From Gammaproteobacteria bacterium (lineage in GTDB: Bacteria; Pseudomonadota; Gammaproteobacteria; GCA-001735895): 64,000 nucleotides of DNA. The stretch spans positions 71,835 through 135,834 of the forward strand of contig JAHEKJ010000231.1 of assembly GCA_024638385.1 (NCBI GenBank). Direction: 5' to 3'. This document shows, one piece after another, positions 32,448 to 55,469 of the stretch. Position 1 is the stretch's first letter. The number at the start of each line of letters is the position of its first letter. The translations under genes and the position numbers were made by a program. The notes below the pieces were generated by a model that saw only the letters and a program-made list of their open reading frames with translations, did not search any database and was not told the origin of the DNA.

Positions 32448-32629
32448 TCGACGACGACGTCCGGCGGCAACCGCGCCCGGCGCGCTGGCCCCTGCCCGAT
32501 GGCCCGGGACGCCGCAATCCGGGCATTGTCGGACCGCGAGATTGCTCCGACGAACCCCGTTTCCGCTCAACTTTTCGCACGCGCGGCCGATCTTCGAAGG
32601 GATGACTCCGACGATGAAAACGGCCGCAG

Positions 32630-35600
32630 ATGCCTGGCGAAAAAACTGACGTCGATAACCGCAAAAACCCGGATGAAGACAAGGTCTTCGAGAGAGATTT
32701 GCGAAACGAGAATCGGCGGCTGAAGCAACAGCTGGCGGCGACCGAAGCCGAGCTCAGATTGAAATACGAGCGCGAGGAAACACTGTCGGCCTCGATCAAG
32801 CTCGGCTTCTGGGAATGGGACGAAATCGAAAATCGGCCGAGCTATCTGTCTCGGCAGTTTGCCGAGATCATAGGAATCAGTCACGATGAAATCTACGATC
32901 TCTATCGTTGCGAGGAAGATTTATACAAATACATCCACCCCGACGATCTCGAGCTTTACCGCCACCATATCGATTTGCATGCCCTTGAAAAAAACGCGGG
33001 GGACGGGGCGCACGTATTCGATTATCGGATTGTCAGGCCCGACGGCGAGATTCGCCACGTGCGGGAGATGGAAATCGGCGTGTTCGAGGCGGATGGCAAG
33101 CTGATTCGCTCGTACGGCGCGGTCCAGGACACCACCGAGTATCACCGACTGCTCGAGGCCAGCCGCAAGAGCGAGGAGCATTACAGTTCGCTGTTTACGC
33201 AGATGCCGCTGGGCTTCATGGAGCAAAACTACTCTGCCATCAAGCGGAAAGTCGACCGGCTGCGGGCCGACGGAGTCCAGGATCTGAAAAGCCACCTGGA
33301 GGCCCACAGCGACGAACTGTGCCAGATGGTGATCGACACATCGGTTACCCGCGTCAACGACGCGCTGCTCGAAATGTACCATGCCGAGGACCTCGGCGAT
33401 TTCACCGAGGACGACGACGACGTCCGCTCCTGGTGGAACGACGAATGGGCGAGATTATACGCCTCCGAGATTGCCGGCCTCGCGGCTGAGGCCAATGTTC
33501 ACGAGGCCGGGCTGGTCGAGGAACGGATCGACGGCACCTTTTTCGAGGTGCGCATGATCACCAAGGTGGTCCAGGGCTACGAGGACACCTGGGAGCGCGT
33601 GATCACGATCTACGAGGACGTCACCGAGCGCAAACGCAACGAAGCCGCGCTGATCGAGGCCAAGGAGGCGGCGGAACAGGCGAGCAAGGCGAAGAGCGAA
33701 TTCCTCGCGACGATGAGCCACGAAATCAGGACACCGATGAACGGCGTGCTCGGCATGACCGAGCTGCTGATGGACGGGGATCTCGACCCGCAGGCCCGGC
33801 GCCTCGCCGCCACGGCCCACCGATCGGCCGAATCCCTGCTCGAGATCATCAACGATATCCTCGACTATTCCAAGATCGAGGCCGACCGGCTGGAGCTCGC
33901 CGACGCCGATTTCAACCTCCGGGGAATGCTCGAGGACGTCCTCGAGATGGTTGCCTCCCAGGCCCATCGCAAGGGGCTCGAGTGTATCGCCAACCTGCCG
34001 CCCGACCTGCCGCAGATAGTCAACGGCGACGAGCTGCGCCTGCGCCAGGTGTTGATCAACCTGCTCGGCAACGCGGTCAAGTTCACCGAGCGCGGCGAGA
34101 TCGGGCTGTCGGTCAGCGTCACCGATCGCGGCATTAACCATTTCGACGCCTCGTTCGAGATCTCCGATACCGGCCCCGGGATACCGCTCGAACACCAGCA
34201 ATCGATATTCGAGGCATTCAACCAGGTCGACAGCTCGGCCAGCCGTCGCCATGACGGCACCGGCCTCGGCCTGGCGATCGCCAGCCGCCTGGTGGACCTG
34301 ATGCAAGGCGATATCGAACTGGAAAGCACTCCGGACAGTGGCGCCCTGTTTCGCCTGCAAATTCCGCTGGCCGTCGCCGCGGAAGACGTCACCAAACCGC
34401 AACCCCCCGAGGCACTCGCCGGCCTGCGCGTCCTGATCGTCGACGATCACGCGGTCAACCGGGAAATCCTGCATAACCAGGTCGTTTCCTGGGGAATGCG
34501 CAACGACAACGTTAATTCCGGGCAAAAGGCGATCGAGCATATTCGCCGGGCGCAGGCGCAGGACGACCCCTACCAGATCGTCCTGCTGGACTGGCACATG
34601 CCCGACATGGATGGCCTCGAGCTCGCGCAAACGCTTACCGCCGACCCCGCCATCCACGTGCCGCAACTCGTGCTGCTGAGCTCGACCGGATTCGACACCC
34701 GGTCCGCCACCGCGCGCAAGGCATCGATCGCGCGGTACTTGCAGAAACCGGTAAAACAGCGGGCGCTGCTCGACTGCCTGAGCGACGTGATCGGCGACCG
34801 CACTGCGGTCAAGGCGGCCACGACCGGGCAAAGGCAACATTTCGCCGGCGCGATACTGCTCGCCGAGGACAACGAAGTGAACCAGGAAGTCGCCATCGGC
34901 ATGCTGATGGCGCTCGGCTGCGAGCCGGACCTTGCCGAAAACGGTGTCGCGGCCGCGGACGCGGCCGCGAGCAAACGCTACGACCTGATTCTGATGGATT
35001 GCCACATGCCGGAGCTGAGCGGTTTCGATGCGAGCCGGCGGATTCGCGATCACGAAATCGAGAATGGCTTGGCGCGGACTCCGATCGTCGCGCTTACCGC
35101 CGACGTCAGGAAAGGAGTCGAGGCGGAATGTGCCGAGGCCGGCATGGACGGCTATCTGGCCAAGCCTTTCAGCCAGCCGAAACTGGCGACCGTACTCGCG
35201 CAATGGCTCGAAACGACGGAACCGGAAGAAGACGCGAAAATCTCGCCGAAGGCCTTGCCGGGCGAAGCGGCGATCGATCCCGGTGTCCTCGACGAATTGC
35301 GCAAGCTGTCCCAATCGACCGGGCGCGACATTCTCGGCAAATCGATTCGCGCCTATTTGCGGCAAGCTCCCGGAGATGTCGTCGAACTGCGCCGGGCCCT
35401 GAGCCAGCCGGACCTGGAAGCGCTCGGGACGCTTGCCCACAGCCTCAAATCGTCGAGCGCCAATCTCGGCGCGACGGAATTGTCGGATTTATGCTTTCGC
35501 CTGGAGAACGCCGCCTACGACGAAGCCATCGATACCGCTGCCGATCTCCTCCCCGCAATCGAGGACTGCCTGTCGCCGGTTCTGCAGGCTTTGCGGCAAC

Positions 35601-38634: not shown

Positions 38635-38733
38635 TTGTCCGTACCGGCTCGGAACCCGGCAAATATCGCGTCTCCCGCCCATCGCCTCGAGAGAGGACCC
38701 GCTCGGCCAGGATAATCATGATAGCCGCGAGGA

Positions 38734-38793
38734 TGGTGCCCAGGGGCGGAATCGAACCGGTCCGCGCTCGGCACCGACACGGGGATTTTCAGT
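38734..38793 (-). repeat. Partial duplicate of the tRNA-Phe 3' half (distal att-like direct repeat), split by a 14-nt insertion
   Basis: 38734..38758 is identical to 49422..49446 (25/25). 38773..38793 is identical to 49447..49467 (21/21). The insertion ggtccgcgctcggc lies at 38759..38772. No 5' half of a tRNA is present. Confidence 0.85.
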
Positions 38794-38985
38794 ACGAGCT
38801 GCGAAGTAAAAAGCTCTATTTTTCAAAAACTTAAGGGGCGTCCGTTGCGGGACTCTGCATTACGAATGCATAACCGTGCACAACTGATCCCCGCAAAACT
38901 CCGTGCGAAACAGGGTTGGCGCAGGCGGTGATACCTTCATATTTAGCTACGATTGGAAGAGCCTGGTTATCAACCAGCTGCTCGC

Positions 38986-40209
38986 TTAATTTTCCAGGGT
39001 CAGGGCATGATCTTCGGTTAGCTGCAAACGGATTCCCATAGATCGGCCTTCGCGGTTCAGGGTTTCCTGCAGCCACAGGCTGTCGCCTTCCGCGGCATGC
39101 CGCAGACTGAATTGTTTGATTTGCATCGGTACCAGCTTCAATTGAATCAGTTTTCCGGAGCCGGGATCGATATCGGCGAAATACATTAGCACCAGGTCAT
39201 CCCGGTATTCCTCATAACCACTAATACCTTCATAGTCATTGATGAAATCACCACTGCCATAAATAATCAGTTTGCCGTTATATACTTCGAGCGGCTTTGG
39301 ATGATGTGAAGAATGACCATAGATAACATCGACGCCAGCTTCATCGATAAGTCGATGGGCAAAATCGATATGGCCCCGGGGAATGGCATAGCCCCAGTTA
39401 CTGCCCCAATGAATGGAGGCAACAACGATATCGCCAGCCTGCTTCAAGGTGCCGACCTGTTGCTTGACCCGCCGCACGGTGCGGGCTGTCATATTTGGCA
39501 ACAGGTTCACGCCCGCTTTATCCGCCTGCGCCGCCCACTCAGATGGAATGCCGCTTGATCGGAAGCCATAGGAATACACGATGACTCTACCTTTCTCTGC
39601 CACATCGATAATCGCAGCCTGTTCCGCCTGCCGCCGATTCTCGCCCGCGCCTGAAAACCTGATCTTGCTGCCTGCTAATGAAGCCAGTGTTTCCGTGAGC
39701 CCGGAGTAACCCCAATCAAGCACGTGGTTATTCGCGAGCGAGCAGTAATCGATACCGGCTTCGGCAAGACAGCCAATATTTTTGGGATGCATCTTGTAAT
39801 GAATTCCCTTACCCGGCCAATAGTCATGGCTCGTGGTAACGCTTGTTTCCAGGTTTATGAGTCTCACATCCGGCGCGATCCGTTGCCATTCCAGCAATGC
39901 CTCTCCCCAGAGCGTCTTACATTGTAATGGCGTCTGAATCGGGCCATTAACGGCTTCTGCCAGCGCAACATAACGCCTCGCATCTTTAACGAACGACTCA
40001 TGTAAACGAGGATTACCCGGATAGGGTAATGCCTGGTCGATACCGCGCCCGGTCATGACATCACCGGCCATGAACAGGGTAATGATGTGACTTCCGGGCA
40101 TCTTTGCAGCATACGCCACTGTTGGCAGACCCGCAGTAACAAGTAACAGGACAAAGCTGTAGAGTCCGAATTTGCCAGGCACCAGGATGTTCAGCACATG
40201 TTTCGTCAA
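38986..40209 (-). CDS. CapA-family protein (poly-gamma-glutamate synthesis / metallophosphatase-like)
   Basis: 407 aa with an N-terminal membrane anchor. Pattern: LFMAGDVMTGRGID, INLETSVT, CSLANNHVLDWG, ASIHWGSNWG, IYGHSSHHP. Confidence 0.75.
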   Translation of the reverse strand: MTKHVLNILVPGKFGLYSFVLLLVTAGLPTVAYAAKMPGSHIITLFMAGDVMTGRGIDQALPYPGNPRLHESFVKDARRYVALAEAVNGPIQTPLQCKTLWGEALLEWQRIAPDVRLINLETSVTTSHDYWPGKGIHYKMHPKNIGCLAEAGIDYCSLANNHVLDWGYSGLTETLASLAGSKIRFSGAGENRRQAEQAAIIDVAEKGRVIVYSYGFRSSGIPSEWAAQADKAGVNLLPNMTARTVRRVKQQVGTLKQAGDIVVASIHWGSNWGYAIPRGHIDFAHRLIDEAGVDVIYGHSSHHPKPLEVYNGKLIIYGSGDFINDYEGISGYEEYRDDLVLMYFADIDPGSGKLIQLKLVPMQIKQFSLRHAAEGDSLWLQETLNREGRSMGIRLQLTEDHALTLEN

Positions 40210-40214
40210 ACCTG

Positions 40215-40564
40215 CTATTCCTTGAACCGCAACAAATCTTGAAGCATCCTTTCAAGCCCCTGAACGACATGGCCCATCCTGCCATAATCGACTTTGTCCA
40301 GGGTATCCTGTGGCATGTGGCAATAAGGAAATCGATACAATGCGGTATCCGTGAACATGACTGCGGGATAGCCCTGTTTCCGGATGGACCTGTGATCAGA
40401 CCAGTCGACCCCGGGGATGAAGGCCGGGGCGGCAATCCCCTCTGACGCGAAGGTTGCATGTGCCCTGAAAGCGCCAGGAAAGCGCCAGGAAAGCGCGTCA
40501 CCAGGCTACGGGAGCGCAGATTGCCGACAAAAGCAATGAAATTTCCCTGGTTCGGATACAACAA
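40215..40564 (-). pseudogene. 5'-truncated, frameshifted remnant of an M28-family metallopeptidase gene
   Basis: Two reverse-strand frames carry consecutive M28 C-terminal sequence (see the 40215..40564 finding for the two peptides). They are separated by an 11-bp tandem duplication at 40471..40492. Confidence 0.6.
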
Positions 40565-40602
40565 ACCGAACGATAGCCTAAAAAAAGCTAAGCCTTTTAA
40601 GA

Positions 40603-41739
40603 TCAGGTGCCATTGTCAGTCTCACCAAGCCGTGCAACACGATGCGTTATCCCGGTTACGATTTCGTAATTAATCGTCCCGAGTATGTCCGCCAGTTCGT
40701 CCGCGCCGATCTCTGCCTCGCCCTGCCGGCCGATAATCACGACTTCGCTGCCCAGGCCGACACGGCCGCGCAGCCGGGTAACGTCCAGCAAACTCTGGTC
40801 CATGGTGATGCGTCCTACCTGTGGACAGCGCAGCCCCCCAACCAGGACTTCGAACCGGTTGGAAAGGTTGCGGTTGAGACCATCGCCATAACCCAGCGGG
40901 ATGGTCGCAATCAACGAAGGCTGCGTGGTGTGAAAGCTATGGCCGTAACTCAGGCCGACACCGACAGGCACTTCCTTGAGCATGGTGATCTGTGTTTTCC
41001 ATTCCAGTACTGGCTTCAGCTCATTAACCAACGGATTGGCAATTTCCCGGGAAGGACGCAATCCGTACATGGCGATTCCCGGTCGCACCGCGTCAAAATA
41101 CGAGCCCGGCAAATCCAGAATCCCGGCGCTGTTTGCCAGATGGCATATCTCTATGCCGCAAGATCTGGCTAGCGCCGCCAGACCCTGAAATCGCCTGATT
41201 TGTTCATGGGAGAGCGTCTTGTCTTTCTCATCGGCACAGGGAAAGTGGCTCATAAGCCCGCGTACCCGTAATCTCGGAAATGCCTGACATTGTGCCAGGA
41301 AGGACTGGACTTCGGACGGCGTAACACCAATCCGCCCCATACCCGTGTCCACCATGAGATGCACCGAAATTTGCCGGTCGGCCTTTTCCGCCTCGACCAC
41401 CAGTGACTCCACCATCTCCATGGTGCACACCGCAGGTTCACAACCATAGGCGACGATTGCCTCACTGTGCTCGGGAAGTGTGGCTGATAACAGCAAATAA
41501 TTTGCGTGCAGGCCTGCGTCAACAAGTACCACCGCTTCGCTGATATGGGCAACACAGATGGTGTCGTAGCCCGACTTGAGCAGGTGGCGGGCAACGAGTT
41601 CCATTCCATGCCCATAGCCATTCGCCTTGATGGCCGGCCACATGGGCCGCGCTCCGACCAGATTCTGTAACAGACGCAGGTTATGCGTCAGCCGGTCGAG
41701 GTGGATATGAGCCCTGCTGAGGTGGCGTGTCTCACTCAT
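40603..41739 (-). CDS. alr: Alanine racemase
   Basis: 378 aa. PLP-lysine motif AIKANGYGHG and typical C-terminal TINYEI. Confidence 0.9.
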   Translation of the reverse strand: MSETRHLSRAHIHLDRLTHNLRLLQNLVGARPMWPAIKANGYGHGMELVARHLLKSGYDTICVAHISEAVVLVDAGLHANYLLLSATLPEHSEAIVAYGCEPAVCTMEMVESLVVEAEKADRQISVHLMVDTGMGRIGVTPSEVQSFLAQCQAFPRLRVRGLMSHFPCADEKDKTLSHEQIRRFQGLAALARSCGIEICHLANSAGILDLPGSYFDAVRPGIAMYGLRPSREIANPLVNELKPVLEWKTQITMLKEVPVGVGLSYGHSFHTTQPSLIATIPLGYGDGLNRNLSNRFEVLVGGLRCPQVGRITMDQSLLDVTRLRGRVGLGSEVVIIGRQGEAEIGADELADILGTINYEIVTGITHRVARLGETDNGT

Positions 41740-41741
41740 AA

Positions 41742-42833
41742 CTACCGGTCCACCCGCAGGTCTTTGCTCAGTGGATACTTTTTCACATATTCCGAAGTCA
41801 TTGCCGCAACCAGGGCACTGTAGTTGGGCACGAAACTTAGCTCGTCGCCGATGCGAAAAGCCGCGGTCGCAGCGGTCATATCGACAATCAAATAGCCGCT
41901 GGAAGCACCAACAATGCTAATACCCGGCTCACGGGGTGTAAGGCCAGCCACATCTACATCTTCGCGACCCAGGTTCAACAGCCCCCGCAACACTACACCC
42001 CGATCCTCGAATTGCGGCAATCCGCCGAAAGCATCTTCGCCTCGATCGCCGACGGGAAGCGATGGTTTATTTTTAATTTCCAAAATTTCGGCATGAATCA
42101 CGAAGGCATCCTGGAAGGTATCCGGCCAGGGCTTGCGTTGCGTGGTTTCACGGCCGAGCAGGATGGCTTCGCCGATACGGGCATGGTTAATCCTTGCCGG
42201 CATCTTGCCCGCCGCGATCAACTCGAGTCCGCTGGAGTTTATGCCGGAAATCCATTCCAGCGTGAGGCCGAAGGTCTGCTCTATCTCAACCGCAAGCTCC
42301 ACCAGGCCCCGCATATTTTCTGCGCCGGGCACAACCCCGCCAAAACAGGCCAGATTAGTGCCCAAACCCTTGATACGGATACCCGGCAATGCGATCGCGG
42401 CGCGCACCAGCGAGACCAGATCATCCGGCCAGACGCCTTCCCGCAAATCGCCCAGATCCACCATGACTATCACATCATGGATTCGATTGTGGCGCTGCGC
42501 CGCATCAGACAAGGCTTCCATTACGCCGAACTCCGAGTTCAGGCTGACATCCACCTTCTCGACCACGGCATCCACCGTGCTTATGGCTGGAATCCGCACC
42601 ATCATAAACGCCGTATCCACGCCAGCCGCCTGCATCCGCTGGATATTTTCCAGGCGTGAATCCGCAATCGAGGAAACGCCACCACGCAGCATTGCGCTAG
42701 CAACATCCGGTTGACCACAGGTTACTTTGGTAACACCGGTTACTTCGATGCCGTTTGTCCGGCACAGACTAACAATGGTGCGGGCATTGTGCTCAATTTT
42801 CTCGAGATCCATGGTCACCCTGGGAGTCATCAT
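41742..42833 (-). CDS. orr: Ornithine racemase-like PLP enzyme (alanine racemase N-terminal domain family)
   Basis: Start taken at MMTPRVTMDLEKIEHNARTI (ATG 42833), 4 nt after the oraE stop. GVTKVTCG carries the PLP lysine. About 363 aa. Position directly after oraSE matches ornithine-degradation clusters. Confidence 0.7.
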   Translation of the reverse strand: MMTPRVTMDLEKIEHNARTIVSLCRTNGIEVTGVTKVTCGQPDVASAMLRGGVSSIADSRLENIQRMQAAGVDTAFMMVRIPAISTVDAVVEKVDVSLNSEFGVMEALSDAAQRHNRIHDVIVMVDLGDLREGVWPDDLVSLVRAAIALPGIRIKGLGTNLACFGGVVPGAENMRGLVELAVEIEQTFGLTLEWISGINSSGLELIAAGKMPARINHARIGEAILLGRETTQRKPWPDTFQDAFVIHAEILEIKNKPSLPVGDRGEDAFGGLPQFEDRGVVLRGLLNLGREDVDVAGLTPREPGISIVGASSGYLIVDMTAATAAFRIGDELSFVPNYSALVAAMTSEYVKKYPLSKDLRVDR

Positions 42834-42837
42834 CGCC

Positions 42838-45027
42838 CTATTCCGTTTCACGTAATCTGCGCACGATGAAACTGGCCACGTCCTGCCCGGTCGTACCCCG
42901 ACCGAATCCAGCATCCAGGCCGCATTCACGTGCCAGGTCGTCGGTTACCTGGGTGCCGCCGGCAACGAGCAGCAAATGCTCCCGCAGTCCACGCCCGGTG
43001 GCCAGTTCATGCAGGTGCCGCATGTGCTGCCGATGTATATCCGCGTGGGTGACGATAGTGGAGATCAGTACCGCACGGGCACCGGTTTGTTCGGCTACAT
43101 CGAGAAGGCGCGCCACGGGTACCGAGGTGCCCAGATCATGGCAATAAAAGCCGTACTTTTCGATGCCGCCGTGTTTGATATCGAGAATTTCGTGCAGCCC
43201 CACCGAGTGTTCATCTTCGCCCACCGTAGCCGCCACCAGGTGAATGTCACGCGGACGCACCCAGGCCTCGATCTCCTCATCCCCCAGAACTTCGACAGGT
43301 TGCGGCATCGGTAGCTGATCGATGGCGATGGCAACATCGAGCACCCCCTTGATTTCGAACATGCTGCCCTCCGCCGGGTGCATGACCCTGCGGTTGATGA
43401 CCTTCGGATCCTGCAGCCCCATGTGTACCGCCATTTGCAGCGCCGCCGCTTCGGCCACTCGCGGACTCTCAGGCACAAACAGTGTCACGCAAACGATATT
43501 GTCACCGTGTTTTTCAACCTCGGGCCGCAGTAAGCCTTCATTGCGTTCCGCGAGAGTCCGCTGCAAACGATTGGTCACGTTATCGTCGGCGTCCAGTTCA
43601 TCGATGTACTGGATCTTTGCCGGATCACACAGGGTGCAGCCGCCATAGCCGTCGCATTGCTTGCCCGCGCCCTGATCATAGCTATTGTTACCGAAATGAC
43701 TGCAGACCGGCGCGCCATAGTCGGGGGCACGCGCGATTACCGTACCTGCACCATCACCGCTATCGGGATCACGCACGATGCCGTCGCCTTTGCGTTCCGG
43801 GAAGAATCCCTGGTCGACAAACTGGCCCGCCGCCACCGCCGCATAATAACCACCGTTCTCCAGGATCTCCTCCACGAACAACACGGCGCGCTCTTTGAGT
43901 TCACGCGCCTGCTGTCGCAACGGCCCATCGTCTTTCAACGTAAGTTGCTCCGCCAACCCATCGATACCCATGAGCGTCTGCCGCGCCGTGTTCACACCAG
44001 CAACATTGTTATAATGCCAGGGAATATTACGGCCCTCATCCGGCGTGATCGTGCTCTGGATATCGGTTGTGGTCAGCCGTGAAATCAGCGTGTCGAGAAC
44101 ATGCGTGACGCTGGCCTCCACCGTGTCAGCCTCCATGTAACGGGTATTTTGCTGGGCGCGGAACCGGTACCCTGCAAAAAGTTCGCGCAGGGCGACGGCG
44201 TAAGGCAGGTCGAGTCGCAGCTTCGGTGCCGGCGGTGCGGTGGGCGGTACCGTCGACAATGCAATCAATTCCTGCGGCATCCCCGCCGCGCGCGAATAGG
44301 CACAATTGATCGCATGTTGTACAAACAGTTCCGGCGTGACCTTCCAGGCCTCCTTGGCGGTGGCGTTGGCATTATGCGCGCCGTCCAACTGCAGGATGCC
44401 GGCATCCGCCAGCACTCGCTTGGCCTCGGCAGCATCGATGAAGGAGCGGTGCATATTGACGTCACGGTAAAGCACGTTGTACTGGGGATCCTGATGCGCA
44501 CCATTGACACCCTCCTCGGCGAACAGCACGGCAATGTCCGGGCCGGCGAGACCGCTCACATAAGAATGAAAATTGATCGGCCTGCCTACTTCGTCTTCGA
44601 TGGCATCGAGTGCCTTACGCGTGGCACGTATTTGTTTGCGTGAAATGGGAATCCCGCCAACACCTTCCGGAGTACCCTCGACCAGGCCATCGATATGGGA
44701 TTGGCCGGTAGTGCGAATCACCATTATATGGTCAGCGCCATGCCAGGCCGCCATGCGCATTCGGCGCAGGTCATCCTCGAAACGTCCGGAGGCAATCTCC
44801 GTGGTAATCACCATGTCACACTGCGGATCTATGTTTCCGAAATAATGTGCGGCAGCCAGTGGCACGGAACGCTCGAGACTGGCGGAACTATTTTTATAAA
44901 CGAAGGGCCCGAGCTGCTGGTTTTCGATTTTCCGACGCCAGCTCCAGCCTTTGCGTTTCGGCCGATACCGATCCAGATCCCTGAGGACCTCTTCCACATC
45001 GAGTTTCTGCTCGGGATCAAGCTTCAT
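42838..45027 (-). CDS. oraE: D-ornithine 4,5-aminomutase large subunit (AdoCbl- and PLP-dependent)
   Basis: 729 aa. Long stretches recognisable as OraE (TTEIASGRFEDDLRRMRMAAWHGADHIMVIRTTGQSH, VNGAHQDPQYNVLYR, TVPPTAPPAP). C-terminal B12-binding DxHxxG motif (VGEDEHSVGL). Confidence 0.88.
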   Translation of the reverse strand: MKLDPEQKLDVEEVLRDLDRYRPKRKGWSWRRKIENQQLGPFVYKNSSASLERSVPLAAAHYFGNIDPQCDMVITTEIASGRFEDDLRRMRMAAWHGADHIMVIRTTGQSHIDGLVEGTPEGVGGIPISRKQIRATRKALDAIEDEVGRPINFHSYVSGLAGPDIAVLFAEEGVNGAHQDPQYNVLYRDVNMHRSFIDAAEAKRVLADAGILQLDGAHNANATAKEAWKVTPELFVQHAINCAYSRAAGMPQELIALSTVPPTAPPAPKLRLDLPYAVALRELFAGYRFRAQQNTRYMEADTVEASVTHVLDTLISRLTTTDIQSTITPDEGRNIPWHYNNVAGVNTARQTLMGIDGLAEQLTLKDDGPLRQQARELKERAVLFVEEILENGGYYAAVAAGQFVDQGFFPERKGDGIVRDPDSGDGAGTVIARAPDYGAPVCSHFGNNSYDQGAGKQCDGYGGCTLCDPAKIQYIDELDADDNVTNRLQRTLAERNEGLLRPEVEKHGDNIVCVTLFVPESPRVAEAAALQMAVHMGLQDPKVINRRVMHPAEGSMFEIKGVLDVAIAIDQLPMPQPVEVLGDEEIEAWVRPRDIHLVAATVGEDEHSVGLHEILDIKHGGIEKYGFYCHDLGTSVPVARLLDVAEQTGARAVLISTIVTHADIHRQHMRHLHELATGRGLREHLLLVAGGTQVTDDLARECGLDAGFGRGTTGQDVASFIVRRLRETE

Positions 45028-45377
45028 AACGGCAGGTTCTCCCAGTATCGTCCCGCCAGCAGCGCGTTACCCGCCTCGCGCACGGAAATACCTTTTTTCC
45101 TGGACAGCTCCAACACAAGGCGCCCTGCGCCATGGCCAAGCAGTCCGTGTTGCCCGATGGCATCGACCAGCGCCCCGGCCTCGAGACTCGAAAAACCCAT
45201 GCGCAACAATACCGAGCGCTCGATAGACGGCGTCGTGTGAGTGCGCGCCTCTTCGATCAGGGGTTCGACGATTTTTTCCACCAGGCTCCAGAAATGCGCA
45301 TGCAGCTCTTCATCCGAGAGACCGCGCAAGCGCTGGCGGCGCGCTGCAAAGTCGTCTTCTCGCTCAGGACATTTCAT
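45024..45377 (-). CDS. oraS: D-ornithine 4,5-aminomutase small subunit
   Basis: Start taken at MKCPEREDDFAARRQRL (ATG 45377), about 117 aa. ATGA overlap with the oraE start. Size and position fit OraS. Confidence 0.7.
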   Translation of the reverse strand: MKCPEREDDFAARRQRLRGLSDEELHAHFWSLVEKIVEPLIEEARTHTTPSIERSVLLRMGFSSLEAGALVDAIGQHGLLGHGAGRLVLELSRKKGISVREAGNALLAGRYWENLPL

Positions 45378-46776
45378 CGATAACCTCCTCGACGTAATCC
45401 TGGCTGCTGCGGGTTTCGGCGGCAAGAAATTCGATATCGACCTCGTTTAGACGAACACCCTCGGGGAGCGACTCGATGGCATTGCGCAAGTACGACCGCC
45501 TGACCTGGTCCAGGTCGATGTCGGCTACGGCGATCTGAGACGGACACTCCGGAATCACGATATTCTGCCCGGGTTTACTATCCCTGGGATCACCCCGCCG
45601 CACCTCGATACCCAGCTGTTTGGCAAGATTGAGTTGCGCCAGCGGATGCTTGCCGGCGCCGGTGTACTCGGTCTCCTGCACCACGACGATCCTGTCCCGG
45701 TCGAGTTCCCGGGCGATGGCAAAGGCGGCCGCGAGCGAAGTATTTCCGGCAGGCCCGCGCTCGAGCCCCTCCAGTTCCGCCAGAACCTGGGTAATGTAGA
45801 ACACCTCACCCTGGGTTACGGTGACAAAACGATCCATGTAGCGCAATGGCCGCGCGGCATTGCGCGGCACATCGGCACGATCCGGCCAGGTGGTGAACGG
45901 CATCGAGAAACCGGTGTGGCCGGTAGTAAACGATTTACGGTTGAAATCATGGTCCGATGCCATGTGCAGTCCGGCGAGATCGACGCTGGCGGCAATCACC
46001 CCGGTGTCCAGGGCTCCGGCTTGCTTGAGCCCCCGGGCTGTGCCCGTCAGATTGCCTCCGCCGGCGTGCGTGGCGATCACCAGGTCGGGATAGCGCCCGC
46101 ATTGCTGCTGCACCTGTTGAGCGAGTTCGTAGCCCAGGGTTTCGATCCCGAGTATTGAATACGGTGTGTAAAGCGAAGCGTTGAAGAAGCCGCTTTCCTC
46201 GAGCACGCCTAAAAAAACAAAAAACAGTTCCGGGCCGACCGAAACCCGAATGACTTCTGCGCCATAGGCCTCGCAGGCCCGGGTTTTCTCCGCAATTTCC
46301 GGTTGCGCGATACCTCGGCTGTCAAAAGCTTCCTGTACCACGACACAACGCAAGCCGGCCTTGGCTGCCTGTGACGCCACCGCGGCACCGAAATTCCCGC
46401 TGGTTGCCGCGGCGACACCGACATGACCACGGCTTTTGGCCTCGCGGACCGCCAACGCAGCGCGACGATCCTTGAACGAACCCGACGGATTGGCCGCTTC
46501 GTCCTTAACGAATATTCGCGCCCCTTTGCCAGGCTGGGCGACGGCACGCACCAGTGCGGTGATATTCTCGAGTTCCAGCAATGGGGTATCGCCGACCGCG
46601 GTACGGCGCTGCACCACGCGCACCTGATCGATCGTATAACCCGTGTCGCTAAGCAACCGTTCGTAGTCAAAGGCCAGCGCGCCGTTAGCGTATTGGCTAT
46701 AGTCGATGCCGAGCGATGCCTTGATGATTTCGTCCCGCCGTCCCATGATTTTGGCGTAACCGAATTCCCCGCTCAT
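45364..46776 (-). CDS. ortB: 2-amino-4-ketopentanoate thiolase beta subunit (PLP-dependent, tryptophan-synthase-beta fold)
   Basis: 470 aa. FVKDEAANPSGSFKDRRA (PLP lysine) and AATSGNFGAAVASQAA. Preceded by the small OrtA-like gene with an ATGA overlap. Confidence 0.78.
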   Translation of the reverse strand: MSGEFGYAKIMGRRDEIIKASLGIDYSQYANGALAFDYERLLSDTGYTIDQVRVVQRRTAVGDTPLLELENITALVRAVAQPGKGARIFVKDEAANPSGSFKDRRAALAVREAKSRGHVGVAAATSGNFGAAVASQAAKAGLRCVVVQEAFDSRGIAQPEIAEKTRACEAYGAEVIRVSVGPELFFVFLGVLEESGFFNASLYTPYSILGIETLGYELAQQVQQQCGRYPDLVIATHAGGGNLTGTARGLKQAGALDTGVIAASVDLAGLHMASDHDFNRKSFTTGHTGFSMPFTTWPDRADVPRNAARPLRYMDRFVTVTQGEVFYITQVLAELEGLERGPAGNTSLAAAFAIARELDRDRIVVVQETEYTGAGKHPLAQLNLAKQLGIEVRRGDPRDSKPGQNIVIPECPSQIAVADIDLDQVRRSYLRNAIESLPEGVRLNEVDIEFLAAETRSSQDYVEEVIDEMS

Positions 46777-47087
46777 CGGACCCGCCCCTGTTCACGGAGG
46801 ATGGCACGCACTTCTCCGCCTATGCCGGAGAGTTCGGGGATAGGCGGCCCGAAGCTGTGGTTGTAGGCGGGATTGGTTGCGATTAATCTGCCCCGCAGAC
46901 ACCTTCCCGTTAGCGTCTCGATCTCGGCCTCGTCACCCATGGCCGCAGCAGTGACGAGAAAGCCCTTCACTCGCAGTTCCAGGGGAACTTGCCGGGTATC
47001 CTCGGGCACCTGCGCCGCACGTTCTCCCGCATCCAGTGCAATTTTGTGGATCTCAACCCAGGCGCCCTGCGCGATCAGTTCAGACAT
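46773..47087 (-). CDS. ortA: 2-amino-4-ketopentanoate thiolase alpha subunit
   Basis: 104-aa ORF (AWVEIHKIAL ... VKGFL ... TNPAYNHSFG) of the size and position of OrtA, between the ord and ortB homologues. Confidence 0.65.
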   Translation of the reverse strand: MSELIAQGAWVEIHKIALDAGERAAQVPEDTRQVPLELRVKGFLVTAAAMGDEAEIETLTGRCLRGRLIATNPAYNHSFGPPIPELSGIGGEVRAILREQGRVR

Positions 47088-48147
47088 GCCTGACCTCGAT
47101 CAGTTCCTCGGGCAAGAAACGGCGCGCATCGGCCAGCATTGCAGCAGACACCGGCAGGTCCGCCATGCTGTGCAGTCCGGGTGCTGCATTCAGCACTCGT
47201 GGAATCGTGTTTACCGCAAGCGCCATGGTTGCCTGTCCTCCCGGAATTTCAGGACTGCCGGCAAGGCTAACATGTGGCGAGCCTTTTATTTCGATGCTGT
47301 CTCCAGTCTGAATACCCGCGAGTCGCGGCTCTATTTGCTGCGGATGAACAAGTGTAATTACCGGCATGCCGCCCACGTACGCTATCGCCGTGTGGTGACA
47401 ACCGGCTACCTGGCCGGGCTCTACGGCCACAAAGGCCGTGGCGCGTTTTACCTGCGAGACAATGGGCTCGCGCGTTTCCTGGATCTGCTCGATCTCCCAG
47501 CCGATAGCCCTGGCAATCATGTGCATCGACTCGATAAATCCGACATGTCCGACGATGGTGCCATTTTGCACACCCTCGTGAAACGCTTCCGGTGTCAGGC
47601 CCACACCCTGGCTCATGAGCACCGATGGGCCGTAAGGAGAAAGATCATTGATGCGTCTGGCCGTAATCGTGTGGATATCGGCGCATACCCCGGTCAGTGT
47701 AATTACCAGTAAATCGAGTATAAAACCAGGGTTAACACCGGTGCCGAGTATCGATATCCCGTGGCTGACTGCCTCCCAGTGCAGCGATTCCGCCAATGCC
47801 GGATATTTATGCCGGGGGTACGCCATCTCTTCGGCAATAGAGATGACGTTGATGCCGTGTCGTACCAGGGTGGATATTTCGCCTGCCGCATCGGTAGCAC
47901 GGGAACAGGTAGCCTGAATTGCCACCTCGGGTCGCGTTTCCTCGATGACCCTTTCGAGGTCAACGCTAATCGGAATGCCTAGCGCTTGATCGAGTCCTAT
48001 CGCCTGGCCGAGGTCCAAGCCAACACGATGAGCCCTTCTGCCAAAGGCTCCGACCAGCTCCAGGCCTCGTTTGGCAAGCACCATTCGGGCAATTCCAGAG
48101 CCCATTTGCCCGGTCCCTAAAATCAGCACTCGGATAGAATCTCGCAT
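47080..48147 (-). CDS. ord: 2,4-diaminopentanoate dehydrogenase (DapB-like NAD(P) oxidoreductase)
   Basis: Start taken at MRDSIRVLILGTGQMGSG (Rossmann), ATG 48147. Contains ILGTGVNPGF. First gene of the operon. Confidence 0.78.
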   Translation of the reverse strand: MRDSIRVLILGTGQMGSGIARMVLAKRGLELVGAFGRRAHRVGLDLGQAIGLDQALGIPISVDLERVIEETRPEVAIQATCSRATDAAGEISTLVRHGINVISIAEEMAYPRHKYPALAESLHWEAVSHGISILGTGVNPGFILDLLVITLTGVCADIHTITARRINDLSPYGPSVLMSQGVGLTPEAFHEGVQNGTIVGHVGFIESMHMIARAIGWEIEQIQETREPIVSQVKRATAFVAVEPGQVAGCHHTAIAYVGGMPVITLVHPQQIEPRLAGIQTGDSIEIKGSPHVSLAGSPEIPGGQATMALAVNTIPRVLNAAPGLHSMADLPVSAAMLADARRFLPEELIEVRHV

Positions 48148-48286
48148 ATGATTTTGGCTGCACCGCAACACGGCTATCTTATAAGCTGAATCGATAGCTT
48201 GATTGACGATCATCAGCTCCGTCTGCTTCAAATTGATCTAGATTTGCACAAATATGCCGACGCTGGATCCAGGCAGGAGGAAAACC

Positions 48287-48640
48287 ATGCAAACCATAGA
48301 AATCACTAGAGACAATTGGCAAAGCTTTTTCGACCAGGTTTCCAGAGCGCTACGGGGCAAACTTATCCAGATCGAAGTCGACAGCCTCGAACTGGGTGCC
48401 CAGATCGAAGTGGATAAATTGTCACTTAACGGCTTAACCTACGATGTAAAAGATGATGCGTTTATCGTCAGCACAGATGAAATCGAGCACGTTATCCGCT
48501 CACCGCAACAGATTTTTGCCGCTGACGGAAGCGACGGGATTAACAGCCTCAAGGTTCACTCGGCGGATGGTACCGAGCAAATAATCAACTTTTCGGAACC
48601 ACTGGCGCTACCGCCGTCGAATCAGGAAGAATCCGCATGA
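48287..48640 (+). CDS. DUF5335-like small protein
   Basis: Start taken at MQTIEITRDNW, preceded by AGGAGGAAAACC. IEV..LELGAQIEV...L.GLTYD pattern. Confidence 0.55.
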   Translation: MQTIEITRDNWQSFFDQVSRALRGKLIQIEVDSLELGAQIEVDKLSLNGLTYDVKDDAFIVSTDEIEHVIRSPQQIFAADGSDGINSLKVHSADGTEQIINFSEPLALPPSNQEESA

Positions 48641-48918
48641 GCCTGAGAGAGACCTATGAAAAGAAAATGCAGGCACAGCTTCACCAGGTGAAAACGGAGA
48701 TCGACGAACTCAGGGAAAAGGCCGATCAGGCGGAGACCAACCTGGAACTTGAATATTACACGCTAATCGAAGAACTGCATTTAAAACTGGACACAGCCAG
48801 TCAAAAGTTCCAATTGCTCAAGCAGGCCAGTGAGGAGAATTGGGATGAATTTAAATCCGAGTTCGAGACCGTCTGGAATTCACTACGTGAGCTGATTAAA
48901 TCAATAACTGCTCCCTGA
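48637..48918 (+). CDS. Small coiled-coil protein
   Basis: 93 aa, heptad-rich (KMQAQLHQVKTEIDELREKADQAE). ATGA overlap with the upstream gene. Confidence 0.5.
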   Translation: MSLRETYEKKMQAQLHQVKTEIDELREKADQAETNLELEYYTLIEELHLKLDTASQKFQLLKQASEENWDEFKSEFETVWNSLRELIKSITAP

Positions 48919-49068
48919 ACCCACCAGCCCTGGACGACTATCACAACTGATTCAAGATCTTTGGCAATACGCAATTCGTCGGTGGCGGCTGTCTGGTAAG
49001 ATTAGACTGGATGCGGAACTAAAATAAAACCAGTAAAAAATACACACGAAGTTAACCCGATTTCAGAG

Positions 49069-49296
49069 TTATGCCCTGACAAACAGGTATTCCGGCCCGT
49101 GCAGGCTGGACTGTCGTGGCGCAATCCAGAGAACCTGGACAGTGTCCTTGCCTAATTGGTCAATCAGAGCGCGAAGCAGATCCGTTTCAGTCAGAATGCC
49201 TGCAATCTAGCCATTGGCATCTACAACGGGCAGGCCTCCGATTCGACCATCGATCATTTGTTTGGTTGCCTCTGCCAGTAGTTCGCCAGGTGCCAT
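49069..49296 (-). pseudogene. Decayed CBS-domain gene fragment (in-frame TAG, upstream frameshift)
   Basis: Hand translation of the reverse strand: MAPGELLAEATKQMIDGRIGGLPVVDANG*IAGILTETDLLRALIDQLGKD. This is a typical CBS repeat interrupted by TAG (plus-strand cta at 49207..49209). The upstream CBS lead-in (YREIAHSGR) is in another frame. Confidence 0.5.
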
Positions 49297-49421
49297 AGTA
49301 ATTAGAACCGTCCTGAATGCGCGATTTCACGATAACTTTGAACCAGGATAGTCACGAAACAAGCGCTATCGCTGATGGACGACCCATGGACTATAAGTCC
49401 CCGTGTCATTCATCGGAATAA

Positions 49422-49497
49422 TGGTGCCCAGGGGCGGAATCGAACCACCGACACGGGGATTTTCAGTCCCCTGCTCTACCGACTGAGCTACCTGGGC
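49422..49497 (-). tRNA. tRNA-Phe (anticodon GAA), CCA encoded
   Basis: Reverse complement: GCCCAGGTAGCTCAGTCGGTAGAGCAGGGGACTGAAAATCCCCGTGTCGGTGGTTCGATTCCGCCCCTGGGCACCA. Folds as a canonical cloverleaf: acceptor GCCCAGG/CCTGGGC, D arm GCTC/GAGC, anticodon stem GGGGA/TCCCC, T arm GGTGG/CCGCC. Confidence 0.95.
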
Positions 49498-52782: not shown

Positions 52783-53366
52783 GCGCTCGGCCCAAAACCG
52801 CAGCCCTGCGCAGCGTCACTGCACGCTGCCTGCTCATGCTCGCGCTCGCTGCGCAACCGTTGACCGCGTCGCATTCGCAGGCCCAGCAAAATCTCGAGCC
52901 GCGACTGCAGATCGGAATCGGCCTGCTGCCGGCGGTGCTGGCGGCCGACCAGACGCACGCCGCGGGCGGTAGCATGGCCGGGGTCGCGGTCTACCTGGTC
53001 TACCTGAACGATCGCCACGTCGCCGAACAGTTGCGCGCCCACCTCGAACACGTCGAGGCAATTCGGCAAAGCCCGGTGGTGCCGGTCGTCATTTCGCTCG
53101 ACGAATTGCTCGACGACAACCCGGCGCCGCACAGCGCGGTCTTCATCGCGGAACCGCTGGGTGCGCGCCTCGACGAAGCGATCGAATTCACGGCCGGGCG
53201 CCGACAACTGCTGTTCTCGCCGTTCAAGGGTGACGTCGAGCGCGGCGTCGCCGCCGGTTTCCGCGTCAGCGACAAGATTCTGCCGCACGTCAATCTCGCG
53301 GCGCTGAAGCGGTCGAAGATTCAACTAAAGGCGTTTTTTCTGCGCATCGCGGTGAAACATGAGTAA
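52779..53366 (+). CDS. YfiR-like (DUF4154) periplasmic protein
   Basis: A GTG at 52779 overlaps the receptor stop as GTGA (alternative ATG at 52755). Signal peptide ARCLLMLALAAQPLTA. C-terminal LLFSP...GVAAGF...NLAALKRSKIQLKAFFLRIA resembles the YfiR/DUF4154 pattern. Assignment is from memory only. Confidence 0.45.
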   Translation: MSARPKTAALRSVTARCLLMLALAAQPLTASHSQAQQNLEPRLQIGIGLLPAVLAADQTHAAGGSMAGVAVYLVYLNDRHVAEQLRAHLEHVEAIRQSPVVPVVISLDELLDDNPAPHSAVFIAEPLGARLDEAIEFTAGRRQLLFSPFKGDVERGVAAGFRVSDKILPHVNLAALKRSKIQLKAFFLRIAVKHE

Positions 53367-55314
53367 ACAGAATTTTCTCGGGAGCCTGTCTCCGACGATG
53401 GATCTCAGGTACTCGATGCTGTTCCTGATCGTCGGCGTTATCATCATTTCGCTGTCCGTCTGGAACTGGCACTACGACATTCGCCCGCGGCTGGTCAGCG
53501 AGGCCGAATCGAACGCCCGGGTGCTCGCCGCGTCGCACGCCAAGTCGATCGAGGCGCAGTTTCAGAACGTCACCGGCAAGGCAGACATTTCGATCATCCA
53601 CAACTCGATCAACGAGATGCTGCTGATCAACGATCCGAACACCGGCGAGACCCTCTACCGGGGTATCGAGCTCGAGGTCGACTACGACGTTTTCCCCGAC
53701 GACTACGAACTCACCAACCTGTCGGTCGGCAACACCGCGTGCACCGAGTGCATCGTCACCGAGAACCCGGTCTTCATTCACCGGACCGGTGAGCTCGCGG
53801 CGATTCTGCGGGTCTATGCCAACCCCGTGTTCTACCAGCGCCTGGTCGACGACATCGTCGACGCCCTCGCGGTCATGCTGATCGGCGTCGTCGCGGTGCT
53901 CGTGATCGCCTGGCTGACGTCCAACCGGTTGCTCAATAGCCTGAGGTCGCGGGAACGCAGCCTGATGTTCGAGGTCGCCGAGCGCAAGGCGGTCGAGGCG
54001 CGGCTACAGCAGATCGCGGCCTACGATCCGTTGACCAACCTGCCGAACCGCTACCTGCTACAGACGGATTTCACGCGCAAGCTCGAGGAATCCTCGCGCC
54101 ACAAGAAAATGCTGGCGACGCTGTTTTTCGACATCGATCATTTCAAGGAGGTCAACGACGTGCACGGCCACGAGGCCGGCGACCGGCTGCTGGAGGAAGT
54201 CGCGTCACGGATCTCCGACGTCACGCGTAACTACGACCTGCTCGCGCGCTTCGGCGGCGACGAGTTCGTCATGATCATGTCCAACGTCGACAACCGGTCC
54301 GACGTGATCTACGTCGCCGAGAAAATCATTTCGAGCTTCAAACCGTCGTTCGTGATCAACGACACGCCGCTGCAGGTGACCACCAGCATCGGCATCAGCA
54401 TTTTCCCCGAGGATGGCAGCGACCCATCGGAACTGCTGAAAAACGCCGACCTCGCTATGTACCGCGCCAAGGCCGAGGGCCGCAACGGCTACCAGTTCTT
54501 CAATGCCGAAATGAACCTCGAGCTGCAGTTTTCGCAATGGGTCGAATCGAACCTGCGCGAAGCGCTCGACAACGGCGAGCTCGAGCTGCATTTCCAGCCG
54601 CAGGTCAACCTCGATACCGGCAAGGTCGTTTCCTGCGAGGCGCTGATTCGCTGGCCGCAGCAAGACGGCGACAAGGTCAGCCCGGCGGATTTCATTCGCA
54701 TCGCCGAACGCTCCGGGCTGATCAACGACATTTCCACCTGGGTTTTCAACGAAGCCTGCCGCACGCTCAATCGCTGGACCGACGAAGGTTTCGACACGGT
54801 ACGCGTCGACATCAATCTCTCGGGCAAGGACTTCATCGAAAAGGGCGTGCTCTACCGTTTCCTGCAAACCCTGCGCAAGTACCAGCTGCAACCGCACCAG
54901 ATCGGTATCGAGATCACCGAGAACGTGTTGCTGGAATCGACCGAGCAGGTCATCAAGTCGCTGTCGGTGCTGCACAACTCGGGGGTGCACATCTCGATCG
55001 ACGACTTCGGCACCGGTTTCTCGTCGCTGAACTATCTCAAGAAGCTGCCGCTGTCGGGCATCAAGATCGACCAGAGCTTCATCCACGAAGCGCCTAGTAA
55101 CAAGGACGACCTGATCATCATCCAGGCGATTACGCTGGTCGGGCACGGCTTCGGCCTCGACGTCGTCGCCGAGGGCGTCGAGACCGAATGGCACCAGTCG
55201 CTGTGCAAGGGCGTCGGCTGCAACACGATGCAGGGCATCTTCGTGTCGAAACCGCTGCCGGCCGACGAGTTCGCCGACCGCTACCTGAAGCGCATCGACA
55301 GCAAGGCCGAATAG
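53359..55314 (+). CDS. Inner-membrane GGDEF-EAL protein with ~145-aa periplasmic loop
   Basis: 651 aa with two TM segments. GGDEF (ARFGGDEF with RNYD I-site) and EAL (CEALIRW, DDFGTGFSSLNYL). 8-nt overlap with the upstream gene. Confidence 0.9.
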   Translation: MSKQNFLGSLSPTMDLRYSMLFLIVGVIIISLSVWNWHYDIRPRLVSEAESNARVLAASHAKSIEAQFQNVTGKADISIIHNSINEMLLINDPNTGETLYRGIELEVDYDVFPDDYELTNLSVGNTACTECIVTENPVFIHRTGELAAILRVYANPVFYQRLVDDIVDALAVMLIGVVAVLVIAWLTSNRLLNSLRSRERSLMFEVAERKAVEARLQQIAAYDPLTNLPNRYLLQTDFTRKLEESSRHKKMLATLFFDIDHFKEVNDVHGHEAGDRLLEEVASRISDVTRNYDLLARFGGDEFVMIMSNVDNRSDVIYVAEKIISSFKPSFVINDTPLQVTTSIGISIFPEDGSDPSELLKNADLAMYRAKAEGRNGYQFFNAEMNLELQFSQWVESNLREALDNGELELHFQPQVNLDTGKVVSCEALIRWPQQDGDKVSPADFIRIAERSGLINDISTWVFNEACRTLNRWTDEGFDTVRVDINLSGKDFIEKGVLYRFLQTLRKYQLQPHQIGIEITENVLLESTEQVIKSLSVLHNSGVHISIDDFGTGFSSLNYLKKLPLSGIKIDQSFIHEAPSNKDDLIIIQAITLVGHGFGLDVVAEGVETEWHQSLCKGVGCNTMQGIFVSKPLPADEFADRYLKRIDSKAE

Positions 55315-55469
55315 CCGCAGGTCCGGAGTAATCGAATTCGTTTTGACCACCGGAGAGATTGCGCGGTCCGGCGTCCCGGCTCGGGGCCGTAATGACCGGG
55401 TAAATTCGTCGTTTCGATGAGCGTTTGCATTGCGATACGACGGCGCTACACTGGCAGACCGATTTAGGG

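Follow-up and report, generated by a model that had tools for sequence, protein, structure and literature searches.

An integrase-less island with an ornithine-oxidation operon beside a tRNA-Phe gene of an uncultured gammaproteobacterium

Gene content and boundaries of the island

The window analyzed here (64 kb of contig JAHEKJ010000231.1, numbered from its first letter) is part of a 156-kb contig of a metagenome-assembled genome (MAG) from an uncultured gammaproteobacterium with 64.5% G+C. It contains a 10.6-kb genomic island enclosed between an intact tRNA-Phe gene and a displaced copy of the 3′ part of that gene, and the cargo of this island is an intact seven-gene operon, ord-ortA-ortB-oraS-oraE-orr-alr, which lies on the minus strand and reads away from the tRNA (Table 1). 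All six genes of the oxidative ornithine pathway (orr, oraS, oraE, ord, ortA, and ortB) are thus found together and intact, followed by a gene for alanine racemase. Operons of this Stickland type, which depend on B12 and pyridoxal 5′-phosphate (PLP) to oxidize ornithine, are best known from Clostridia. The original prediction, made from the letters alone, had described an integrase-less island at this place without recognizing its cargo as a complete oxidative ornithine-degradation operon. Every one of the 10 island proteins is metabolic or stress-related.

Oxidative ornithine degradation has been described for Clostridia and proceeds by racemization, a B12/PLP-dependent 4,5-aminomutase step, and a deamination that depends on NAD(P), after which thiolysis yields acetyl-CoA and alanine (PMC8803604); the clostridial orr, oraSE, ord, and ortAB locus goes back to Fonknechten et al. 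2009, as cited in PMC8803604. The island shares with that locus all six pathway genes, Ord, OrtA, OrtB, and OraE passing the NCBIfam equivalog cutoffs, and differs from it in having the proteobacterial gene order, in which orr directly follows oraE and alr is added at the end, and in being carried by an island that adjoins a tRNA gene in a high-G+C gammaproteobacterium. Judging by these family assignments, the island would give its host a pathway from L-ornithine through D-ornithine, 2,4-diaminopentanoate, and 2-amino-4-oxopentanoate to acetyl-CoA and alanine, and Alr would interconvert the alanine enantiomers made along it; the enzyme activities themselves are predicted. The orr gene of the island is syntenic with orr in relatives, its true start lies probably near 42824, and that of ord probably some 28 codons downstream of the listed start. 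Apart from the tRNA-Phe, Rfam finds no riboswitch or other RNA in the window, and promoter and terminator scans stayed at the level of shuffled sequence.

Table 1. Features of the island and its boundaries (window coordinates)
Feature	Position	Strand	Evidence
Direct-repeat copy 2: displaced tRNA-Phe 3′ fragment, attR; 26-nt + 22-nt blocks	38733..38793	-	
14-nt insertion GGTCCGCGCTCGGC between the two blocks of the displaced fragment; breaks the T-stem	38759..38772	.	
PGA_cap (CapA-like) gene, intact, N-terminal hydrophobic segment	38986..40209	-	Pfam PF09587, 256.6 bits
M28 peptidase remnant, C-terminal end, profile positions 143-187/193	40218..40505	-	Pfam PF04389, 24.7 bits, E 2.2e-5
alr, alanine racemase	40603..41739	-	TIGR00492, 316.5 bits, cutoff 168; Pfam
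orr, ornithine racemase-like	41742..42929	-	NF040742 best match, 408.7 bits, under 480 cutoff
oraE, D-ornithine 4,5-aminomutase B12/PLP-binding subunit	42838..45027	-	NF040743, 1215.6 bits, cutoff 800
oraS, D-ornithine 4,5-aminomutase small subunit	45024..45425	-	Pfam PF16552 (OAM_alpha), 158.2 bits
ortB, 2-amino-4-oxopentanoate thiolase subunit	45364..46776	-	NF040741, 785.2 bits, cutoff 550
ortA, 2-amino-4-oxopentanoate thiolase subunit	46773..47087	-	NF040739, 124 bits, cutoff 70
ord, 2,4-diaminopentanoate dehydrogenase	47080..48231	-	NF040740, 455.6 bits, cutoff 400
DUF5335 gene, G+C 50%	48254..48640	+	Pfam PF17269, 115.3 bits
sll1863-family stress-response protein gene, G+C 46%	48637..48918	+	NF052504, 82.2 bits, cutoff 35
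CBS-domain pseudogene remnant	49138..49323	-	Pfam PF00571, 43.4 bits
Inverted 17/20 copy of tRNA-Phe anticodon arm + variable loop	49388..49407	.	repeat scan, pairs I10, I23
Direct-repeat copy 1, 47 nt: A31 to A76 of tRNA + one base 3′ of CCA	49421..49467	-	
tRNA-Phe(GAA), intact, CCA encoded; attL	49422..49497	-	ARAGORN; Rfam RF00005, 70.3 bits

The tRNA-Phe(GAA) gene is the only tRNA that ARAGORN finds in the window. In the sense of the tRNA, the direct repeat begins at A31, with which the 5′ strand of the anticodon stem ends, and spans the anticodon loop, the variable loop, the T-arm, CCA, and one base more. In plus-strand sequence it is made up of an exact 26-nt block (49421-49446 = 38733-38758) and an exact 22-nt block (49446-49467 = 38772-38793), which together form 47 contiguous bases on the tRNA side (49421-49467). 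The two ends are identical at 48 of 48 bases, with no substitution in the displaced, unselected fragment; the anticodon-loop core is the same at both, and the 14-nt insertion in attR, the attachment site at the displaced fragment, lies 21 nt 3′ of the loop. The insertion falls within the 5′ strand of the T-stem and so leaves the displaced copy a dead fragment, called as a tRNA by neither ARAGORN nor Rfam. Even with three mismatches allowed, the window holds just two occurrences of each block, where shuffles expect none; a sensitive blastn search of the window with the whole tRNA gave no further copies, and internal attachment (att) copies or signs of tandem accretion, sought in the window, were not found. 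The insertion resembles a sequence of the host flank, GGACCCGCTCGGC, located 64 nt away at 38695-38707 (12 of 14 aligned columns), which may have served as its template.

The composition of the DNA changes where the repeats lie. At the left boundary G+C drops from 64.0% in the last 500 nt of the host flank to 48.8% in the first 500 nt of the island, and at the right boundary it climbs from 49.0% in the last 500 nt of the island to 61.8% in the first 500 nt of the flank; located at 100-nt resolution, the break coincides with both repeats. The island averages 56.1% G+C, the remainder of the window 64.5%; the island ranges from 47 to 61% where the flanks range from 62 to 67%, its genes have a third-codon-position G+C (GC3) of 0.56-0.69 against 0.79-0.84 in the four flanking genes, and tetranucleotide outliers, scored in 2-kb windows over the 64 kb, occur only between 39 and 50 kb. 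Milder dips in G+C to 54% at 32500-33250, the 5′ end of a histidine-kinase gene, and to 58-60% at 53000-55500 are also seen, both below tetranucleotide-outlier level.

No recombinase family was found by Pfam on any open reading frame (ORF) of at least 60 aa in the window, nor, at E values up to 1, on 33 stop-to-stop fragments (three non-coding gaps). A hidden Markov model (HMM) was built from eight integrase sequences of the fetched loci, seven from tRNA-Phe-associated IMG/VR contigs and one from locus L063; against 1189 six-frame fragments of the 64-kb window its best match was noise (E=2.8), whereas the positive controls were all recovered at E <1e-80. A hidden integrase remnant is unlikely, because the non-coding DNA of the island amounts to only ~1.1 kb, and the CBS and M28 stumps fill ~0.5 kb of it. 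Pfam and NCBIfam detect no relaxase, type IV secretion system, or integrase domains among the island proteins, which also include no phage structural proteins and hence give no grounds for calling the island a prophage, an integrative and conjugative element (ICE), or an integrative and mobilizable element. Arm-type sites, an excisionase, or an oriT were not recognized in the island, and a plasmid scan with OraE matched only two chromosome-sized records and thus no plasmid relatives.

Much of what the original prediction had drawn from the letters is borne out by these analyses. ARAGORN and Rfam return the tRNA-Phe(GAA) gene that it had placed at 49422..49497 on the minus strand; its repeat blocks, 38734-38758 = 49422-49446 and 38773-38793 = 49447-49467, are exact, and each extends by one base; and its hand counts of G+C on four 60-nt lines agree exactly with calculation (0.40, 0.583, 0.517, and 0.683). 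The foreign composition that it read from those counts recurs in GC3 and in windowed G+C and tetranucleotide profiles, the two profiles breaking at the repeats, and its report that no ORF resembles a recombinase holds for Pfam searches of ORFs and fragments and for the integrase HMM. The decayed recombinase remnants for which it had proposed a search did not emerge from the six-frame comparison.

The insertion site in relatives and in other elements

Outside the repeats lie host genes: on the left a hybrid histidine-kinase (HK)/GGDEF/EAL gene followed by an HDOD gene, and on the right genes for a DUF4382 lipoprotein, a TonB-dependent receptor, and a DUF4154 protein. The order tRNA-Phe-DUF4382-TonB-DUF4154 is kept in three relatives, in which the tRNA is identical and has the same place and orientation, the spacer between tRNA and DUF4382 gene is conserved, and the DUF4382 proteins share 70% (L168), 67% (L169), and 64% (L170) aa identity with that of the window; these relatives came via a protein database, a scan of genome contigs with DUF4382 having returned no close one. 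The left flank has its counterpart in contig L002 (HDOD 82% aa), where the HDOD stop is followed, after ~240 bp, by the 3′ end of a tRNA-Phe without the 14-nt insertion. Similarity extends beyond the repeat boundary for another 8 nt, within the 5′ strand of the anticodon stem, before the contig ends, and this HDOD-to-tRNA-Phe junction is empty-site-like, as would be expected of an unoccupied site. More distant HK-HDOD relatives (L004-L007; 57-62%) were rejected as evidence on the empty site, having unrelated genes and no tRNA after HDOD.

The neighborhood of the site varies among relatives. A gene for a trypsin-like lipoprotein protease, absent from the whole window, follows HDOD in three of them (L003:1815-2324, L171, and L172); because they carry it there, the genes that follow the HK-HDOD operon are evidently fluid in their order even among close relatives. 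On the other flank, the DNA 3′ of tRNA-Phe in L168 (ENA XULI22-1 scaffold_2538, positions 1-2627) is low in G+C, 48-56% against 60-68%, and encodes a BNR/sortilin plus FadL-like outer-membrane protein (>785 aa), with no integrase within these 2.6 kb. Since this low-G+C cargo differs from that of our island, the 3′ side of tRNA-Phe is a variable spot in the lineage, which suggests a hotspot occupied by alternative islands. Several contigs break inside the 3′ half of tRNA-Phe (the end of L002, the starts of L169 and L170), and the Logan contig L001, which independently carries the host flank and the tRNA fragment up to 38763, ends five bases into the 14-nt insertion. Breaks at this tRNA fit branching of the assembly graph, with co-occurring strains that have identical tRNAs and alternative DNA downstream.

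Elements that use the same target exist in IMG/VR. The exact 46-nt att sequence has no match there, and a scan with a 32-nt tRNA core returned 11 contigs; in five of these (L175, L177, L178, L183, and L184) a tRNA-Phe 3′ fragment that begins at positions 28-31 and ends with CCA stands in place of the tRNA. Closely related tyrosine integrases are encoded on six (L175 and L176, called by the Pfam domains Int_N and Phage_integrase; L178, L179, L183, and L185, matched to these with phmmer and the HMM); the integrase-like ORF of L177 is more distant, and L184 has none. The integrase adjoins the tRNA fragment in L175 and lies at the opposite end of the 9-11 kb contig in L178 and L183. The repeat of the window, starting at A31, marks the same sublocation of tRNA-Phe as these fragments. 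The six integrase-encoding IMG/VR elements share with the island their target tRNA and its sublocation, show no DNA or protein similarity to it outside the tRNA, and differ from it in having the integrase.

Islands at phe-tRNA genes come in very different sizes. Sullivan and Ronson reportedly found, in 1998, a 500-kb symbiosis island of Mesorhizobium loti at such a gene, and the pheV/pheU islands of Escherichia coli likewise target phe-tRNA genes; these are much larger, with P4-type integrases and often transfer genes, and have in common with our island the target and adaptive cargo, the cargo itself being unrelated. A close structural parallel is provided by the tRNA-gene (tDNA) islands of Islander (Hudson, Lau, and Williams 2015, PMC4383910), among which 3760 of 3919 have a 3′ fragment and 2083 of 3919 an anticodon-centered attP. 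As in those, an intact tRNA gene stands at one end, the cognate fragment at the far end in the same orientation, and the island 3′ of the tRNA; as in the anticodon-centered “A” class, the block of identity starts at the anticodon loop and reaches the 3′ end, composition is foreign, and the cargo is metabolic. In contrast to Islander islands, there is no integrase and the displaced fragment has a 14-nt insertion. Because it lacks an integrase gene, the island fails the Islander integrase filter, and island finders that require one would miss an island of this kind. Cis-mobilizable elements (CIMEs), which retain intact attL and attR and are mobilized by accretion with a cognate ICE (ICEberg 2.0, PMC6323972), resemble the island in having att repeats on both sides and no genes for integration or transfer. 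Like them, it is plausibly what deletion has left of a larger element; unlike them, it has an interrupted attR and no known partner element. In these respects the island belongs, as an ordinary if degenerate member, to a well-known kind whose integrase-less derivatives have been described before.

Origin of the island

We think it likely that the island is the relic of a tyrosine-integrase-mediated insertion at an att site in the anticodon loop of tRNA-Phe, from which the integrase was later lost by deletion. An integrase usually sits beside the intact tRNA. We posit that recombination at or close to the anticodon loop joined the host tRNA to an element whose attP carried the 3′ part of tRNA-Phe; the incoming DNA would have supplied a new tRNA 3′ part, from A31 to CCA (the 3′ 46 nt), and the original one would have been displaced by 10.6 kb, to 38733-38793, where it would subsequently have gained the 14-nt insertion. 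The integrase could then have been lost in a deletion whose other end lay inside the CBS gene; the 5′ half of that gene would have gone with it, and 98 nt now separate the CBS remnant from the tRNA. The geometry is canonical: the tDNA is intact, the island follows its 3′ end, and the 3′ fragment has the orientation of the tRNA. It is also the tRNA-facing side of the CBS gene that is truncated.

The original prediction had also seen the footprint of site-specific integration here, and the geometry, the composition breaks, the relatives, and the sublocation shared with the IMG/VR elements all support it. Its further suggestion that the island is old finds no such support: because the repeats show no substitution in 48 bases, the GC3 of island genes has not ameliorated toward that of the host, and none of the seven operon genes is damaged, nothing points to great age. 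Gene remnants, which it had placed at both ends, occur at the tRNA end (the CBS stump); the M28 stump is internal, 1.4 kb in, behind the intact PGA_cap gene. Such modest value as the island has lies in its cargo, a complete ornithine-oxidation operon on a precisely bounded, recently acquired piece of DNA in a high-G+C gammaproteobacterium.

Several observations weigh against an integrase-mediated origin. Neither an integrase nor a remnant of one was found in any frame of the window. The evidence for an empty site comes from a single 2.1-kb contig, L002, which ends inside the tRNA, and the closest HDOD relatives (L003, L171, and L172; 85-86% aa) have the trypsin-like protease gene and no tRNA after HDOD. 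No independent contig spans either junction, L001 stopping at 38763 and L174 covering 48145-49192; tRNA-Phe stands beside related ornithine clusters in 0 of the 56 loci scanned (the closest and the longest); and the tRNA-proximal CBS remnant looks like an ordinary chromosomal gene of a related gammaproteobacterium with 52% G+C, L005, not like the backbone of a mobile element.

A variant of integrase-mediated insertion, rather than its opposite, would have the island still mobilizable in the manner of a CIME, a recognized class of elements (PMC6323972), and excised or accreted by a tRNA-Phe-specific integrase that another part of the genome or an incoming element would supply. The repeats, identical at 48 of 48 bases, would suit such an element, as would an anticodon-loop core that is intact at attR together with ~21 nt on its 3′ side, an unameliorated composition, and intact cargo; the 3′ side of tRNA-Phe is variable in relatives, and integrases that use the same sublocation exist. 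We nonetheless regard continued mobility as unlikely, though with some chance of being right: the 14-nt insertion disrupts attR, arm-type sites, an excisionase, and an oriT have not been recognized, and the 64-kb window contains no partner integrase.

Acquisition without site-specific recombination, for example of a chromosomal segment of a lower-G+C relative that recombined at the conserved tRNA at one end and was joined illegitimately at the other, with the tRNA fragment arising as a local duplication, strikes us as improbable. It would accommodate the lack of an integrase, the mosaic content with gene remnants at the module joins, and the affinity of the CBS remnant, whose nearest match (84% nt) is the chromosomal gene of L005. 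It leaves unexplained why the fragment starts exactly at A31 by the anticodon loop, the sublocation used by integrases, runs to CCA plus one base, and has the correct orientation and end; homologous exchange, moreover, would not duplicate the 3′ part of a tRNA.

An assembly chimera, in which a low-G+C segment of another organism was joined to the MAG contig via a shared tRNA-Phe, is very improbable: although the tRNA is identical in several co-occurring populations, the contigs L002, L169, and L170 break inside it, and independent contigs confirm neither of the junctions, a chimera needs two false joins, the attR side shares with the tRNA only 26 + 22 nt, too short to collapse in final-k assemblies, DNA of the island is present in the sibling run SRR12825416, and L001 has the displaced fragment and the start of the insertion beside HDOD, so that the host really carries this fragment, an insertion scar.

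Relatives of the cargo, mosaic structure, and minor features

The island offers a mapped example of the ornithine pathway moving between lineages. The nearest relatives of the operon are scattered over very different Proteobacteria. The best matches in a GTDB-wide scan with OraE reach only 77-81% aa and come from Granulosicoccaceae, unclassified Gammaproteobacteria, Nitrosomonas, Sedimenticola, Methylococcaceae, and Methylomicrobium lacus, with further ones in Alpha- and Deltaproteobacteria, Binatia, and Deferrimicrobiaceae; Nitrosomonas, M. lacus, and Sedimenticola are unexpected hosts for such a cluster. The order ord-ortA-ortB-oraS-oraE-orr is conserved in ~150 loci and is followed in most by alr. 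In the proteobacterial clusters (L008-L029 and L095-L167) alr mostly comes right after orr and no gene separates oraE from orr, and in loci from Firmicutes, Actinobacteria, and Riflebacteria a gap of ~1.4 kb lies between oraE and orr. No homologues of PGA_cap, DUF5335, or sll1863 were found in the fetched ornithine-cluster loci (n=160 for PGA_cap).

In several loci the G+C of the cluster is 5-15 points off that of its flanks, as in M. lacus (L019), where 64.5% stands against 48.7% on the left, and because of such departures horizontal mobility seems to be a general trait of the operon. The M. lacus cluster was considered as a tRNA-Arg island and rejected, the tRNA having purE/purK, MFS, and CstA genes as neighbors and no repeat. 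A broader proposal, that tRNA-Phe-specific integrases acting in trans shuttle the B12-dependent ornithine pathway between unrelated Proteobacteria on a functional, CIME-like island without an integrase, is in our judgment distinctly unlikely; if true, it would explain both why the cluster turns up (OraE 77-81% identical) in MAGs of Granulosicoccaceae, Nitrosomonas, Sedimenticola, Methylococcaceae, Binatia, and Deltaproteobacteria and why its G+C often sets it apart from its flanks.

The ord gene has relatives of its own. The closest Ord homologues (81-84% aa, ~82% nt) are encoded by stand-alone genes on contigs of ~50% G+C, and Ord proteins linked to a cluster are at most 74% identical (aa) to that of the island, a hint that this end of the operon has had a history of its own. 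The stand-alone genes, which match window positions 47107-48260 on JGI metagenome contigs (L088-L094) and have no ortA or ortB beside them, may reflect either exchange of ord between contexts or decayed clusters.

The island resolves into a mosaic of three modules with gene stumps at the joins: the M28 remnant with the CapA-like gene (A), the intact ord-ortAB-oraSE-orr-alr operon (B), and the DUF5335/sll1863 pair with the CBS remnant (C). In module A, the PGA_cap gene has 52% G+C and a GC3 of 0.56; the M28 remnant, for which no relatives were found among the fetched loci, marks an internal junction of the mosaic. The stumps may be older than the transfer. In module C, the DUF5335 gene segment recurs at 100% identity in the Logan contig L174. 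The CBS remnant covers residues 69-130 of what in full would be a CBS-pair protein of 130 aa; the N-terminal half, on the tRNA-facing side, is gone, and the remnant contains a nonsense codon (CAG to TAG at 49207-49209). In L005 (52% G+C), an intact CBS gene that aligns with window positions 49097-49290 lies directly upstream of the HK-HDOD operon (L005:3856-4248), a place where the window has no intact CBS gene before its own HK gene; it matches the remnant at 42 of 62 aa and 162 of 194 nt, and because of this nucleotide identity the tRNA-proximal module comes probably from a related gammaproteobacterium of lower G+C.

Two minor features lie close to the ends of the island. Inside it, 15-34 nt past the 3′ end of the tRNA, the inverted sequence GGACTATAAGTCCCCGTGTC pairs with 49450-49469; the 17/20 match is improbable locally, yet at noise level across the 16-kb region scanned, and it could be either the relic of a recombinase site or a chance match. 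Between the displaced fragment and the PGA_cap stop, at 38846-38898, a nested hairpin (TTGCGGG...CCCGCAA around the palindrome TGCATT-ACG-AATGCA) could act as a terminator or as a protein-binding site.

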